DNA of 11,712 bases from a virus. Taxonomy: Duplodnaviria; Heunggongvirae; Uroviricota; Caudoviricetes. Numbering within the stretch: the stretch's first letter is position 1; each line of letters begins with the position of its first letter. The notes beneath the pieces were generated by a model, which saw nothing but the letters and a program-made list of their open reading frames with translations, was not told the origin of the DNA and searched no databases. Positions 1 to 11,368 of this stretch are shown piece by piece. The DNA lies in IMG/VR virus record IMGVR_UViG_3300000228_000007; one strand, written 5' to 3'. A program made the position numbers and the translations under genes.

Positions 1-120
1 ATTTTAGTAGAAGAACCTAAATATAATTGATATTTTTGAGAACTAATTGAAGAACAAAACGTAAATCCATATGAATATATAGATGCCGTAGATATATTAA
101 TTTATTCACTAACAAGATAA
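1..120 (+). CDS. Hypothetical protein, 3' part (5'-truncated by the window)
   Basis: Frame 1 open under code 25 (ILVEEPKYNGYFGELIEEQNVNPYEYIDAVDILIYSLTR), TAA 118-120, next ATG 3 nt later. A decayed paralog lies at 656-782. Confidence 0.6.
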
Positions 121-547
121 TATATGATTAATTTAAGACTTTTAAGACTTTTAATAGATGAACTATTAAAAATAGATGGTAACAAAAATATATTAGTGAT
201 GTCAAATACTGCTGATGCAGAAGATGAAGATTATGACATAACGTATGAAGCTCAAGAATTTGATTCTATAAAAATAAGTGATTTGTTAGTATTAATAAAA
301 AGATTTTCTGTCTCAAATATTAATATTATATGAAACTTTACAGATCCTAAATGATATAATGAAATTATGATTTGATTTGACGTTTGAGACAATGGAGATG
401 AGAGTATAACTTTATTTTTTTATTAAAAATTAAATATATGAAATCGGAGAATTTATAGATGTTATAGGATTATAATTATAAATATGAAGTAAAATTGAAT
501 ATATAATGTGCAATGGCGTAGATTTAGGATTCGTTTGAATAAGTAAC
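19..547 (+). repeat. Degenerate direct repeat, copy A (pairs with about 687-1243)
   Basis: 388-439 is identical to 1149-1200 (52 bp) and 498-547 to 1194-1243 (50 bp). Coding parts are highly similar with substitutions and indels. The 5' boundary is approximate and may extend outside the window. Confidence 0.9.
124..426 (+). CDS. Hypothetical protein, 100 aa; paralog of 786-1187 lacking 34 internal residues
   Basis: ATG 124 to TAA 424-426 with TGA read-through: MINLRLLRLLIDELLKIDGNK...GFDVGDNGDESITLFFY. Frame is conserved in both copies. Confidence 0.75.
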
Positions 548-586
548 ATGGAAAAAATTGAAAAAGAAAAAGGAATTACATTTTAA
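438..586 (+). pseudogene. Possible small gene remnant
   Basis: Protein-like pieces (EIGEFIDVIG / GSKIEYIMCNGVDLGFVGISNMEKIEKEKGITF) are broken by stops and apparent 1-nt losses. The 3' part recurs at 1202-1243. Confidence 0.35.
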
Positions 587-598
587 TTCCTTTTTCTT
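564..598. terminator. Intrinsic terminator-like hairpin, likely bidirectional
   Basis: Perfect 15-bp inverted repeat AAGAAAAAGGAATTA (564-578) / TAATTCCTTTTTCTT (584-598), 5-nt loop, at the end of repeat copy A. Confidence 0.8.
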
Positions 599-655
599 GA
601 TTATTTTACATATTTATATATGGTATAAATACCATTATTTTAATAACTTGAACTA

Positions 656-782
656 ATGATTAATAATCATAAAATATTAATAACGGAAAATATAACTAAA
701 TGATATTTTTGAGAATTAATACAAGAATAACAACATAATCCTTATGAAGATATGGATACTATTATATTCACTAACCAGATAA
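656..782 (+). pseudogene. Decayed paralog of the 1-120 gene
   Basis: MINNHKILITENITKGYFGELIQE then premature TAA 728-730, followed by NPYE. A later frameshift relative to copy A (...SLTR-TAA equivalent at 780-782). Confidence 0.6.
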
Positions 783-1243
783 TGTATGATTAATTTAAGA
801 CTTTTAAGAGACGAACTATTAAAAATAGATGATAATAAAGCTGTATTAGTAATGTCAAATACTACTAACGCAGAAGATGAAAATTATGACATAACGTATG
901 ATGCTGTCGCATATGATATGGATAAATGAGAATTATATCTAACTATAGCACCTGAATACGTATTAGAATATACATATGAAAATTATTTGAATTTTAATAA
1001 AAATAAACAAGAATTTGATTCTATAAAAATAAGTGATTTGTTAGCATTAATAAAAAGATTTTCTGTTTCAAATATTAATATTATATGAAACTTTACAGAT
1101 CCTAAAGATGAATGATATAATGAAATTATGACTTGATTTGAAGTTTGGGACAATGGAGATGAGAGTATAACTTTATTTTTTTATTAAAAATTAAATATAT
1201 AATGTGCAATGGCGTAGATTTAGGATTCGTTTGAATAAGTAAC
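687..1243 (+). repeat. Degenerate direct repeat, copy B
   Basis: See copy A. Carries 102 extra nt (906-1007) and lacks the 65 nt corresponding to 440-504. Confidence 0.9.
786..1187 (+). CDS. Hypothetical protein, 133 aa, apparently two related small modules
   Basis: ATG 786 to TAA 1185-1187 under code 25: MINLRLLRDELLKIDDNKAVLV...IKISDLLALIKRFSVSNINIIG...GFEVWDNGDESITLFFY. Confidence 0.8.
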
Positions 1244-1311
1244 GATGAAAATGCTTAAATGTTGAATATTGGAGGTGTTTGAATACTTTACATTGTAATA
1301 ATTAATAATAT

Positions 1312-1494: not shown

Positions 1495-3162
1495 ATGTTA
1501 AAAATAACAAAAGAAAATTTAATATATTTACAAAATTTATTAATGGTAAATTTTACTATTGTAGATAATATAGATAAAATTTTTAATATCTACCATGAAA
1601 ATTATGGTTTTGCATTATCAAATGAAGATATTAATAGTATTATTAACTCTGATATTTCAATACTTTCAAACTTTGATAACTATGTATTTATTGAAAAGTC
1701 ATCATGATTAAAAGAAGATATTTTTAATATATGCGTAGAACGTAAAAAAATCTCCATAGGAGAGTGATTAGATAATTTTAACGGTTATGTATTAACATAC
1801 CATGATGACATACGTCTATGAGAAAAATTTAGAGATTTAGATATTTATGATAATAGTGGAAATTTATTAACATTAAATCAAAAAATAGTATTAATTTGAC
1901 ATATTGGAAAATTCATTCAAACAAATTTTTTCTTACAAATGTTTAGAAGTTTGTATATAAATGATTATGGTGTAATTATAAACTTATTTAATTTAAGATT
2001 TTATAATGAACATGAAATCATTAATATGGCAAACGATTGAGATTTACGTTGGTCAAAAATAATTAATGAATCTGGAGAGCTTACTCCGTTTTTTATGGAA
2101 AAGGTTGACTGACAAATGTTAATGTTATTTACGTATGACAACGTTACGTTTTTACAATCAAAAGGTGCTGTTACTACGATAGATCTTATAGATTTTGATA
2201 AAAATTGAATTTTTGGTTCAGTAGTTAAATTAATTTGAACTGATTGATTGTTATACCTTCAAAAAATGTCTCAAGAAAATAATGATATAGTATATCATTT
2301 TGAACTTTTAGCAACAGTAAATCAAGTTGTGCAAGAATATTCAGAACCATGATTATTTTTGATTGGTTGAAGATATATAAATTCTTTCAGAAACTGTATT
2401 GATTTTTCAAACGAGGAAACTTTTATGAATACATATTATTGAATTTATGATTGAAAGTATATTACTAAGATAGTATTTTCAAGCGATGAAAATATTATCT
2501 ATGATAAAATTAAAAAAACTCGTGCTATTGATGATGATTATGATAACTACGTTATTGAGTGATATGTTATGGTAAAATGATACTTATTTACAAAAATAAA
2601 AAACTATCAATACTTCATAGCAAAATTAATAAAATCCTTTTCCTTAAGCAAATCAAAAGAAACCATTAATGGAATAAAAAATGTATTACAAAAAGACGCT
2701 AATTTTTTAACAATACAAACAAACTTTTTAATGGATAGTGAAAATATATATGATTCAAATTTAATTAATGAAAGTTTAGATAAAGTTTCTACATTAAAGC
2801 AAAATAGAAAACTTAAAATATCTTATACGAGATTTATTAGATATTTAGCAAAGCATATATCAAGAGATTTAGTTGATGATATAATATTTTCAATAAAGAA
2901 TAATAAAAACAAGTTTATAGAAATCTATAAAGATTTCTTAATTGAATCACTTATTGATGTTATAGCATGAATGCTTACTTCAGACCAGGAAGAAATATCG
3001 GCATTGCATAATATACTTGGTGTTGGAGGTGAACTTGATATAAGTTCAGATAACTTAAAATCAGATGTAAAAAATATCATATACGAGAAACTTAACTTTG
3101 ATGAAAATTCATATTTCATAAATAAAGTAAAAATCGTAATCAACGATATTAAATCTATTTAA
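1495..3162 (+). CDS. RNA ligase, T4 Rnl1 family, 555 aa
   Basis: One 1668-nt ORF under code 25. Ordered ligase motifs: I MEKVDG (K at 2101-2103), Ia QSKG, III HFELL (E 2302-2304), IV IEGYV (2554-2568), V TKIK (2590-2601). IV-V spacing matches T4 Rnl1 (EGYV...KIK). Confidence 0.85.
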
Positions 3163-4464: not shown

Positions 4465-4513
<49 letters not shown>

Positions 4514-4631: not shown

Positions 4632-6043
4632 ATGATATTAGATATAGATATTGTAGGTAAAAACATAACAAATAAAAATATAGATTGAATAGTTTCAACG
4701 CCATTATATATATCAAAATATATGGTTGAAAATTCAAATATTGACATAAATACAACAATAATAGATCCGTGTGTTTGACATGGGGTCTTTCCACTAGCAA
4801 TACTATTTTATATAGAAAAAAATATAAGTTATCTTGAGACGAATTATATGACTATTTTATTAATAAAGTAACTTGTCATGATATTAATGAAGAGTCGTTA
4901 GAAAGTTTTTTTTTATTATTAATTGAGTTTTTCAAATTAAGAAATGTAATAAAAGTTAAAAACGACTTTAAAAATATAATATTACAGGACTTCTTGTTTA
5001 ATGAATGTAATCAGAAATATGATTTATGCATATGAAATCCTCCATATATTAGAACTAAAAAAATAGAAGAAAGTTATCTTAAAAGATTAAGAAAATCATA
5101 TAAAACTTGTAAATCTTGAAATATTGATATTTATTATGCCTTTTTTGAAAAAGCAATATTAGTTGCAAATCGTGTTGTTTATATAACACCTAATTCACTC
5201 CTTTTAAATAATTCGGCAAAAGAGACAAGAAATATTATAAAGACTACTGGAATAGAATTTCTTATAGATTTTAAGGATTATAAAGTTTTTGAATGAATTT
5301 GAGCATATTGTTTAATTATTTCATTAAATAGTGAAAAAATAGATAAAAAAACAATCTTATATAGTAGTTCATTAGATTCAGAATTTATAAAAACAAATAT
5401 AAATGATATTTTTATTACAAAAAAGAATAATCATAATATAGAAATTTATAGCGGTATTGCAACACTTGCTGATAGTTTATATTCTATTAAGTTATTAAAT
5501 GGCAATTATTATACTAAAAATAATATAGAAATAGATAAAGAACTTATTGTACCTTTATATAAGTTAACAAAATTTAATCATAATTGATATATATTGTTTC
5601 CATATACAAACAAGAAAATATTAGATTTAGAAATATTATCAGAAAAATATACAAAAACATATAATTATTTATTATCAATTAAAAACGTATTAAATAATAG
5701 AGATAAGTGAAAAACGGAAAAATATGATAGTTGGTATGCTTATGGAAGAAAGCAATGATTTAATAATATAAAATGAGAGAAGGTTATTATAATACCGAAA
5801 ATGATTTCAAATAATAATAAACCGTTCGAAGTAGAATTAAATTCTCTATATGCATGACATAAACAATTTTTATTTACATCATGATATATCATAAGTTGAT
5901 ATACAGATTTAGAAAAATTGTTTATATTATCTGATATATTTATTGATAGTTGTAGAAAATATTGAAAAGCATTTCCTTGAAAGAACTTTTCATACTATTC
6001 TATTTCTAAAACAATACTTGATACTATTTTTTCAAACATTTAA
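4632..6043 (+). CDS. Orphan N6-adenine DNA methyltransferase (gamma class, Eco57I/TaqI-like), about 470 aa, with a frameshift at the A7 run 4816-4822
   Basis: Motif I IIDPCVGHGVF (4758-4790) is in the ATG-4632 frame, which stops at TAA 4869-4871. The -1 frame carries HDIN, motif IV CIGNPPY (5027-5047), YITPNS, SGIATLAD, RDKG and WYAYGRKQG, ending TAA 6041-6043. One more A restores a single ORF. Confidence 0.85.
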
Positions 6044-8622: not shown

Positions 8623-9195
8623 ATGAAAAAAATATTGAAATATTATGAAAATGAACTTGGACTAAATTTTATCAAGATTTAGATACATGAAAGTATTATT
8701 TACAAACAAAAGATTATATAAAAGAACTTTATGATGTAAATAATTGGTTTAGAAGAGGGGCGTTTTATCAACATTTTCCTAATTTGATATATATTGAATC
8801 AACTGAAGATTGACTTTCAAAAATATATGAAACAGAACTTCTATATCCATTAAAAGCTGAAAATACAATAGCTTGGAAGCAATATAAATATCTAAAGGGT
8901 TGTTTGGATCAAGCATATGATGATTATCCTTTACAATATTCATATAATGAAATTGATAGAATGTGGTGTTTCTTTAATAAACTAAAAGATAATAATATTG
9001 CTCAGGATGGAACAGAGGTTATATCTAAAACGATGTTATGTGAATTAAGTGAGACCATTCGATTGAATATGTAATTATACATCTCGCCCAATGATAGAAT
9101 TATCACCAAGAAACTTGAAAGTAGATTGAAATTGAAATATAATACTGATTAATATATTATTTGATAGAGAATTATTACTAAATAAAAATAAGTAA
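8623..9195 (+). pseudogene. Minimal protein-kinase-like fold gene, about 190 aa, interrupted by two frameshifts
   Basis: Reconstruction: MKKNIEILGKGTWTKFY (Gly-loop-like; needs +1 A at A7 8626-8632), HFPNLIYI, YETELLYPL, then after removing one base near 9060, DGICNY...IELSPRNLKVDGNGNIILINILFD (catalytic-loop-like), TAA 9193-9195. Confidence 0.55.
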
Positions 9196-9232
9196 AAAAA
9201 AGAGAGTTATTTTAAAATGATAACTCTTTTTT
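9194..9232. terminator. Bidirectional intrinsic terminator between convergent units
   Basis: AGAGTTAT (9203-9210) / ATAACTCT (9220-9227) stem, flanked by an A tract on the left and a T tract on the right. Confidence 0.75.
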
Positions 9233-9240
9233 ATTATATT

Positions 9241-9768
9241 TTATACAAGATTTATATCCAATCACATATTTTTGAAAGAAATCAAGCATTCAGCAACTCC
9301 TTTTGCGTCATCAACTGGATTGTGCGTATGTTTTGTAAAAGAATATTTTTTCTTCCAATCATTTTTTACTTTCATTGTCTTTTCCATTCAACAGTATAAA
9401 TCTCCTACTCTTATTCAAGAGTGTCAAAACGGATTTTCTCCTACATATTTATGAAAATAATAATTTATAAATTGCCAATCAAAAGCCAAGTTGTCTGATG
9501 CAAAAACATTAGGTCAAATAGAATTTCTTTCAACCCATTTGAAAAACTTTAACATTACATCTTCAGAATTATTAAATTGTAAATGTTCTTCTCTTGAAAA
9601 TCAAGATATAGATAGGGCTACTGGATCAAAATTATCAGTAATTGGAGCAACTTCTCCATAAAAAGTTCTTGTAAGAGTATCTTCTACTATTACGGCTCAA
9701 AAAGAAACCATTGAATATAATCATGGGCAAGGTCAATCGGCTTCAACGTCTACTACTATATAGGACAT
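9241..9768 (-). CDS. DEDDh 3'-5' exoribonuclease-like protein (Rv2179c/RNase AS-like), 175 aa
   Basis: YIVVDVEADGPCPGLYSMVSFGAV (Exo I), SDNLAFDWQFINYYF (Exo II), NPFGHSG, HTHNPVDDA (Exo III). ATG 9768 to TAA 9241-9243. Confidence 0.9.
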
Positions 9769-9772
9769 ATAT

Positions 9773-10126
9773 TTATTGTTTATTATTTAATAATAAAATG
9801 AATTCATCCATCATTATTCTTGGTATATAATCATTCGGCCACAATTTTCAATGAAAACGTAGATAATTAAAAGTATTTACAACCTTTTTATATCTCAATG
9901 AATAATCATCAGAATAATGAGATATTTTTTCAATATCATAAAATAGAACTTCAATTAATTCTATACGATCTTTGTAATTATAAAATACATATCTTAATGC
10001 CTGAAAATCTTGGACTGTTACTATTCTTTCCAATAAATCATTCAAACTTAAAATTTTACCACGCCAACAAACAGTCGGATAATGATCCTCCATATACTTA
10101 AAGAATATGCTATCATAATTATTCAT
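9773..10126 (-). CDS. Hypothetical protein, 117 aa
   Basis: Track ORF 9848-10126 extended through TGA to TAA 9773-9775 (...FHGKLWPNDYIPRIMMDEFILLLNNKQ). Gaps of 10 nt and 4 nt to its neighbours. Confidence 0.75.
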
Positions 10127-10136
10127 AGTTGTATAG

Positions 10137-11087
10137 TTATTTTTGAAAAACGTTTATAAGATAATTTATTAATTCAATATTTGAATGTTTTAACCATAAT
10201 GATTTAATTTTTGGATAAAATGCGTACTCATTTCAATGATCGTAATTTGACTTTTCTTTTAATGCATTTATCAGCATATCAATATTTATTTTATTAGAAA
10301 GATAGATTATATCATCAATATCACGTTCATTTAAACGCTTTAATTTATTTGCAACTATATCCTCATCTGATGCTTTTGGAATAGTAACTCAATCCAAATT
10401 TACATATTCATATTTTGAATTAAAATTAGGCATCCAGTCTAATTTAATTGAGGCTATTCAATATCAAGGAAATTCAAACGTTATATCTTTCCAATTAGCG
10501 TTTTCATTTACAAAACACCCATTTTCAGTTAAAAAAGTTATTATAAAATCCGCCGTATTTTCAATTTCTCATAAAAGAATACCCTGGTCTACAGTATTAT
10601 GGTAAAATGAAAAATCTAAATCTAATGAAAATCTAATATAATCTTGTCATGATAAATTATCTTTTATCAACAACGAAGTTCAACCTGTAAAAAGAACTTC
10701 ATTAGATATAAATGATGTATTTTTAAAGAAAAATTTAACACCTTCAATTAATGCTTTTTTATGTATTATTTGTTTTTTATCATCATACACTATTTTGGGT
10801 ATAACTTCATTAGCATAATCATATTGAAGAAATTTATCATCTATAAAATCAGACTCATTACTTGTAAGAAAATTTTTATTAATATAATTAAATATATCTT
10901 CATGCGTAACAAAATTATCATTTCAAAAACGTATATTCATTGTGTCTTCTAACTCTTTTATTGAAAACACATAAATATAATCCATAAATGAATTGATATT
11001 ATCTTCTGATATTTTGTAATTATAATCTACATTTCAATTTATAGAAATATAAATATAATTATTCTCTTTTATGAAATAAATTTTCAT
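10137..11087 (-). CDS. AbiEii/AbiGii (MenT-like) nucleotidyltransferase, 316 aa, with long N-terminal extension
   Basis: VLFTGGTSLL (GG at 10680-10685), RFSLDLDFS, and C-terminal EDIVANKL...RDIDDIIYL. ATG 11087 to TAA 10137-10139, uninterrupted under code 25. Confidence 0.8.
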
Positions 11088-11152: not shown

Positions 11153-11368
11153 TTATCTATTATTTTTTTTCCATTTTCTAAATTCTTCCAATTCTTTATT
11201 GCTTATGTATTCTTCATATTTTTCTTTTGCATATTTTCATACTACGGCTAATCCAGTTCAAACTAAAACAACTTTTCAAACAGTAGTTTTTAATGCTGTT
11301 GAAATAACTTTACCAACTACAATAGAGCAAACTGCTTTTTTAGCAATATTTAAAAGTTCAGTATTCAT
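11153..11368 (-). CDS. Small hydrophobic/amphipathic protein, 71 aa
   Basis: MNTELLNIAKKAVCSIVVGKVISTALKTTVGKVVLVGTGLAVVGKYAKEKYEEYISNKELEEFRKWKKNNR, TAA 11153-11155. Confidence 0.7.

Follow-up and report, generated by a model that had tools for sequence, protein, structure and literature searches.

A putative toxin-antitoxin-like pair of nucleotidyltransferase and helical partner, with a Cap18-like nuclease, on a DNA element that reads TGA as glycine

As a 11,712-nucleotide stretch of DNA recorded as that of a virus of the class Caudoviricetes, the window analysed here (this whole stretch) carries three consecutive genes, encoding a nucleotidyltransferase (NTase), a 117-residue protein (the partner) and a DEDDh nuclease. 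By examining their gene structure, genetic code and protein families, together with their neighbourhoods in related loci, we hypothesize with moderate confidence that the first two form a toxin-antitoxin-like pair with the toxin gene in front, and that the nuclease is co-transcribed and autonomous. The functional unit would thus be two genes, NTase and partner: the NTase, as its fold and motifs suggest, would add nucleotides to the 3' ends of tRNA and so block aminoacylation, as MenT and AbiEii do; the partner would bind and silence the NTase, plausibly by inducing auto-phosphorylation of its residue S154; and the nuclease, on a common transcript and with a common terminator in the window lineage, would have a separate task, most likely the clearing of short or 2'-5'-linked oligonucleotides, and would not be required for control of the NTase.

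Genetic code and organization of the locus

The window has a GC content of about 20%, and its TGA codons are read as glycine (code 25). A reading with table 11 was rejected, since all three genes are interrupted at TGA and become open once TGA is a sense codon; table 4 (TGA as tryptophan) was rejected as well, as none of the nine TGA codons of the exonuclease gene falls in a tryptophan column of an alignment with 15 homologues, while eight of the nine align to columns that are mostly glycine. Under code 25 the features are the following:

11153..11368, minus strand: ORF of 71 aa, co-oriented, 65 nt upstream of the NTase gene
10137..11087, minus strand: NTase, 316 aa, DUF1814 (AbiEii/MenT-type), code 25; predicted toxin
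10773..11087, minus strand: N-terminal extension of the NTase, about 105 aa
9773..10126, minus strand: partner, 117 aa, all-helical, new family; predicted cognate antitoxin or obligate partner
9241..9768, minus strand: nuclease, 175 aa, Cap18/CBASS-Exo-like DEDDh
9194..9232, no strand assigned: intrinsic terminator hairpin, from sequence, fold and coordinates

The NTase and partner genes are separated by 10 nt, and the partner and nuclease genes by 4 nt. Gaps of 10 nt or less occur in only two of the 21 other co-oriented gaps of the 21-kb source locus, and an operon is plausible because such tight gaps are rare on this element. The 71-aa ORF may lie on the same transcript as the NTase; no equivalent was found at the matching place in the other NTase loci. 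The terminator consists of a 7-bp stem (9204-9210 paired with 9220-9226) and a 9-nt loop, and is probably bidirectional, since an A8 tract (9194-9201) and a T6 tract (9227-9232) flank the hairpin and would let it work in both directions. It had been missed by an automated terminator scan because loops longer than 8 nt fell outside the limit of the scan; comparable hairpins lie 3' of the nuclease gene in three related loci (L060, L210 and L212). The initial annotation had described three co-oriented genes with these two gaps and a single terminator, all of which is confirmed under code 25. No tRNA genes were found in the window, and nothing points to the involvement of tRNA-Gly(UCA) or to the takeover of host tRNA that had also been proposed.

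A JGI contig of 77 kb carries the same DNA, as do other assemblies, and near-identical pieces were found in wastewater runs. Contig pieces from an RNA library span parts of all three genes, which is no proof of expression.

Several other features were observed on the element. The first 1,251 nt of the window (1-1251) contain a tandem duplication of about 660-760 nt that has given rise to paralogous ORFs (124-426 and 786-1187), with segments 73-98% identical. The coding sequence of an Eco57I-type DNA methyltransferase is split over two frames that overlap (4632-4871 and 4685-6043, together 4632-6043), and no cognate endonuclease was recognised nearby; a long (AAT)n tract (4466-4513) lies within a mostly non-coding gap. 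On the source contig, the region some 3-8 kb upstream of the NTase gene contains a glutathionylspermidine synthase-like gene (L054:5934-7265) and genes for DUF350 and PrsW.

The NTase belongs by fold and motifs to the DUF1814/AbiEii/MenT superfamily

Profile searches relate the NTase weakly to the AbiEii proteins: Pfam matches to DUF6036 (E 9e-5) and AbiEii (E 0.0015) are both under the cut-off (19 bits against 22.5 for PF08843, and 22.7 against 23.6 for PF19502), two of its homologues (P0008 and P0017) carry PF08843, and the AbiEii model of PADLOC matches at E 4e-6. The core comprises approximately residues 105-316, and the AF2 model has a pLDDT of 90. In Foldseek searches with this model, MenT3/TglT, JHP933, MenT4 and MenT1 are the best matches (E 2e-6 to 1.5e-4) and occupy all of ranks 1-14 with a probability of 1.0, while CD-NTases rank far below (E no better than 3e-3, TM near 0.27). 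The core carries the motifs G135-G136-T137, R152-x-S154-x-D156-x-D158, K248, R251 and D259, in which G136, T137, R152, S154, D156, D158, K248, R251 and D259 are invariant across 11 homologues. Motifs I-IV of the superfamily (GG, S/T-x-D-x-D, Lys and late Asp), mapped by spacing and by comparison of the NTase profile with PDB sequences, are all present. Fold and invariant motifs agree with the MenT/AbiEii-like identity given in the initial annotation, and judging by motif spacing S154 and D156 would correspond to S78 and D80 of MenT3 and to T39 and D41 of MenT1.

The DUF1814 fold is common to the window NTase and the toxins of MenAT1 and MenAT3 from M. tuberculosis (MenT1, 8AN5; MenT3/TglT, 6J7S), and the four motifs and the phospho-acceptor position of these toxins (PMC7450476, PMC11375011) are also found in the NTase. 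Different from MenT, the window NTase has a code-25 gene and the N-terminal extension. Family membership is the basis on which we would expect it to tail the 3'-CCA of tRNA and to arrest growth.

The extension is missing from homologues of 189-229 aa, and is partial in P0005 and perhaps in P0008. It weakly resembles (pairwise E 7e-5, 23% across 141 aa) the product of a degenerate gene in L060 (L060:4213-4988), which lies just before the NTase region, encodes 164 aa that resemble the first 141 residues of the window NTase, and has a worn GG motif; this gene and the next ORF may together represent a full-length NTase that was copied in tandem and has since decayed. Pattern scans for the NTase recovered one archaeal locus among genome contigs and no match in viral or metagenome contigs, although TGA-encoded glycine weakens such scans and absence is not implied. 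Annotated phages yielded no match to the NTase, and the homologue P0016 had no match in the atlas.

A small helical partner accompanies the NTase

A gene of the partner family (91-160 aa) lies directly downstream of the NTase gene in all nine code-25 loci (the window, L060-L065, L069 and L070, with L066 duplicating L065), a small sample in which several contigs are short. The gaps between the two genes range from -56 to +11 nt, and the pairing, with unrelated flanks around it, persists down to about 27-30% NTase identity; the surroundings of the pair vary and include HigB, resolvase and methylase genes. The partners constitute one family: leave-one-out searches recover each member with E values of 4.5e-5 to 1e-24, the background lying above 0.2, and the family is marked by a W-R-G motif, W21, and by N84. 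The AF2 model of the window partner (pLDDT 83) has six helices. No match to the family was found in Pfam, PADLOC or the sequences of the PDB; its FW motif presumably resembles that of DUF6922, and none of eight members matched DUF6922 (PF21956) in a Pfam search.

Neither neighbour of the NTase matches the AbiEi/COG5340 wHTH antitoxin (by Pfam and PADLOC, and by eye for the 71-aa ORF), so the window pair is not AbiE, although AbiEii profiles match the NTase weakly. The pair would act in the manner of MenAT1, with which it shares a small cognate partner, MenA1 being a small unrelated antitoxin of 7.4 kDa (PMC11375011); by contrast with MenAT1 and MenAT3, the toxin gene comes first, the partner family is unrelated, and structural identity is 11-19%. 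Of the related systems RlegTA and SanaTA, RlegTA has this gene order, its antitoxin RlegA being encoded downstream of the DUF1814 toxin (10.64898/2026.01.19.700257). Antitoxins are known to induce auto-phosphorylation of MenT at the S/T-x-D-x-D site (PMC11375011), the AbiEii site being T65.

Natural deletions reveal the order of gene loss

Syntenic relatives of L060, found via proteins at least 90% identical to its nuclease, have lost the NTase in two separate events. In L212-L214 (three assemblies, probably of one population), which are 93-95% identical to L060 at the nucleotide level, a deletion of about 780 nt has reduced the NTase gene to stubs, and a 4-nt frameshift interrupts the partner gene near codon 84. 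In L210 and L211 the whole NTase gene is gone, and the partner gene is reduced to a remnant of 103 nt. The partner thus decays after the NTase is lost and depends on it, as expected of an antitoxin; two genes strictly coupled, with the toxin lost before the antitoxin, is the general pattern of toxin-antitoxin systems. The nuclease, by contrast, is intact in L210-L214 (98-99% identical to that of L060), with a pN/pS of 0.02-0.05, a sign of purifying selection that also spans time before the deletions; kept after both of them, it is independent of the NTase in the L060 lineage. This evidence comes from two events in a lineage where the nuclease gene is convergent, rather than from the window's own operon. 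As for the element itself, L210 (on the 309-kb contig ERZ25540811) and L060 represent a code-25 element with YopX genes, a DNA methylase, a T2SS/T4P ATPase and a pilin-like gene.

Constant pairing and decay after NTase loss make it likely that the partner is the cognate antitoxin of the NTase, and probable that its family is a new one among the antitoxins of DUF1814/MenT toxins. The initial annotation had named the 117-aa protein as a possible antidote beside the nuclease, and it behaves as one.

The NTase may also be no toxin at all: with the partner as a subunit, it would be an enzyme that modifies RNA ends or nucleotides, perhaps in an RNA-repair kit that includes the nuclease. Two archaeal homologues (26-27% identical) stand alone, with no partner gene alongside, and so this NTase branch may not always be toxic; moreover, the closest solved sequence to the NTase profile is H. 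pylori JHP933 (4OK0/4O8S; E 2.7e-6), which has a similar short core, 18-20% structural identity and no known link to the partner. A ligase-like KxDG motif, at K203 of a 555-aa ORF elsewhere in the window (1495-3162), would suit such a kit, but this ORF has no Pfam, PHROG or PDB match and its identity as a ligase finds no profile support. The order of loss, NTase first and partner second, follows toxin-antitoxin logic (though a subunit would decay too), the fold is nearest to those of proven toxins, and the variable contexts of the pair also speak against an enzyme of this kind, which we consider unlikely.

The nuclease belongs to the Cap18/Exo family

By sequence, the nuclease is a member of the Cap18/Exo DEDDh family and is not RNase T-like. 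Its closest solved relative is Cap18 (7T2S; single-sequence E 5e-26), its profile matches Cap18 at E 6e-37 against E 6.5e-4 for RNase T, and the PADLOC exonuclease model PDLC00753 matches at E 3e-36. The catalytic residues D7, E9, D97, H149 and D154 are all intact, as in the CBASS-associated Exo (PMC9122588). The DEDDh part of the earlier designation as a DEDDh exoribonuclease therefore stands, while the exoribonuclease part is uncertain, the closest solved relative being Cap18. Mapped from motif spacing, P13, D48, I54, N93 and H116 would correspond to P15, D49, V55, N97 and F120 of VcExo, and on this mapping the pocket is partly conserved; the E51 position is Val in the nuclease. Cap18 and its relatives favour 2'-5' links, SmExo (the one Exo so tested) is inactive on ordinary DNA and RNA, and Exo dampens cGAS in CBASS (bioRxiv 10.1101/2025.03.04.641389). 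Unlike Cap18 and the CBASS-associated Exo, the window nuclease has no CD-NTase or CBASS gene nearby: the combination of CD-NTase and effector in one operon was not found, and PADLOC gave no CD-NTase match.

The nuclease subfamily is widespread (53 viral stretches and at least 472 metagenome stretches) and stand-alone, in bacteria and large phages. At 130 other nuclease loci, with 937 kb of flanking sequence, neither the NTase subfamily of the window nor the partner was found; the neighbours vary, and no neighbour family occurs in more than eight of these loci, none of which uses code 25, making them an imperfect background. In the phylum of the archaeal homologue, six of 351 genomes carry the nuclease, none beside an NTase of this kind. 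A search by DNA pattern for nucleases under code 25 returned three matches, all due to chance. In one lineage (L080:2145-4391, L119 and L137), a pair of AbiEi-like (named by eye) and AbiEii genes lies about 115 nt downstream of the nuclease gene, which is itself downstream of a gene for a 599-aa unknown protein. In an archaeal genome (L154:2-1556), the nuclease gene heads a co-oriented run with genes that by eye are wHTH-MNT- and HEPN-like, a further case of a neighbour of the NTase type.

The nuclease is a neighbour of the pair at some loci

The nuclease gene adjoins the pair at three of eight informative loci: the window, L070 and L060 (L069 was left out, as its contig ends too soon). The three genes are co-oriented in L070, with a nuclease gap of 2 nt and 70.6% nucleotide identity to the window; in L060 the nuclease gene is adjacent and convergent, on the opposite strand from the pair. 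Between the window and L060, identity is 36% for the NTase, 31% for the partner and 59% for the nuclease, and no other gene is common. At L061-L065, no nuclease was found beside the pair within 0.7-5.4 kb of downstream flank. In a quick tree the nuclease of the window groups with that of L060 as its sister, with weak support (SH-aLRT 84); this agrees with a single old association better than with recruitment on several occasions. In the favoured reading, the three genes are long-standing neighbours. The recurrent link between NTase and nuclease that was anticipated from the window is thus real at L070 and, in convergent form, at L060, but is missing from the other five loci. An obligate link, as a three-gene system of writer and eraser would have, was not found: besides its presence at only three of the eight loci, the nuclease outlasts the NTase.

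These observations bear on the proposal, made in the initial annotation, that the nuclease is an antidote which trims 3'-5' tails from tRNA, in a toxin-antitoxin system of writer and eraser or in a takeover of host tRNA. Co-orientation and tight gaps would favour it, and the logic of tail trimming is sound, since RNase PH and the CCA-adding enzyme are both able to remove MenT3 tails, and trimming may in principle relieve MenT toxicity (PMC7450476, PMC11541572); those enzymes, however, are unrelated to the nuclease, which lies far from RNase T and has in SmExo a relative inactive on ordinary nucleic acids. The constant partner of the NTase is instead the 117-aa protein, and a nuclease that is missing at five of eight loci, conserved after the NTase has twice been deleted and surrounded by varied neighbours elsewhere makes this role very improbable.

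Alternatively, the partner may be the main antitoxin and the nuclease an accessory eraser that sets a threshold by also removing what the NTase makes, be it a tRNA tail that has leaked through or a product that is short or 2'-5'-linked. The operon with its 4-nt gap and common terminator, the trio in L070, the adjacency and the weakly supported nuclease sisterhood in L060, and the independent nuclease lineage next to AbiE would all be in keeping with such a role. There is precedent too, as Exo negatively regulates an NTase when it dampens cGAS, and RNase PH gives partial rescue from MenT3 (PMC7450476). On the other side, the nuclease is conserved after NTase loss and is lacking at most informative loci, and the link to AbiE is one lineage among about 85 nuclease clusters and could reflect clustering in defence islands. 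To our knowledge, moreover, no DUF1814 enzyme is known to form 2'-5' links. We regard this accessory role as rather unlikely, and the same doubt attaches to its generalization, in which Cap18/Exo-type nucleases would be recurrent accessory regulators of DUF1814 toxins, in a two-layer control with the new antitoxin family.

Implications

We thus favour a toxin-antitoxin-like pair accompanied by an autonomous nuclease. Literature searches found no description of the partner or of the trio, in line with the initial annotation, which knew of none. Were the product of the NTase erased by the nuclease, a minority reading here, the recently described 2'-5' Exo enzymes would be tied to tRNA toxins; accessory regulation would take the function of Exo beyond CBASS, and would imply a new MenT-type chemistry. 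In the favoured reading, a probable new antitoxin family joins the unrelated antitoxins already known for DUF1814/MenT toxins, and the pair is a small system in which induced auto-phosphorylation could be tested. The natural deletions reveal the order in which the genes are lost, evidence of a kind seldom available for uncultured code-25 elements.
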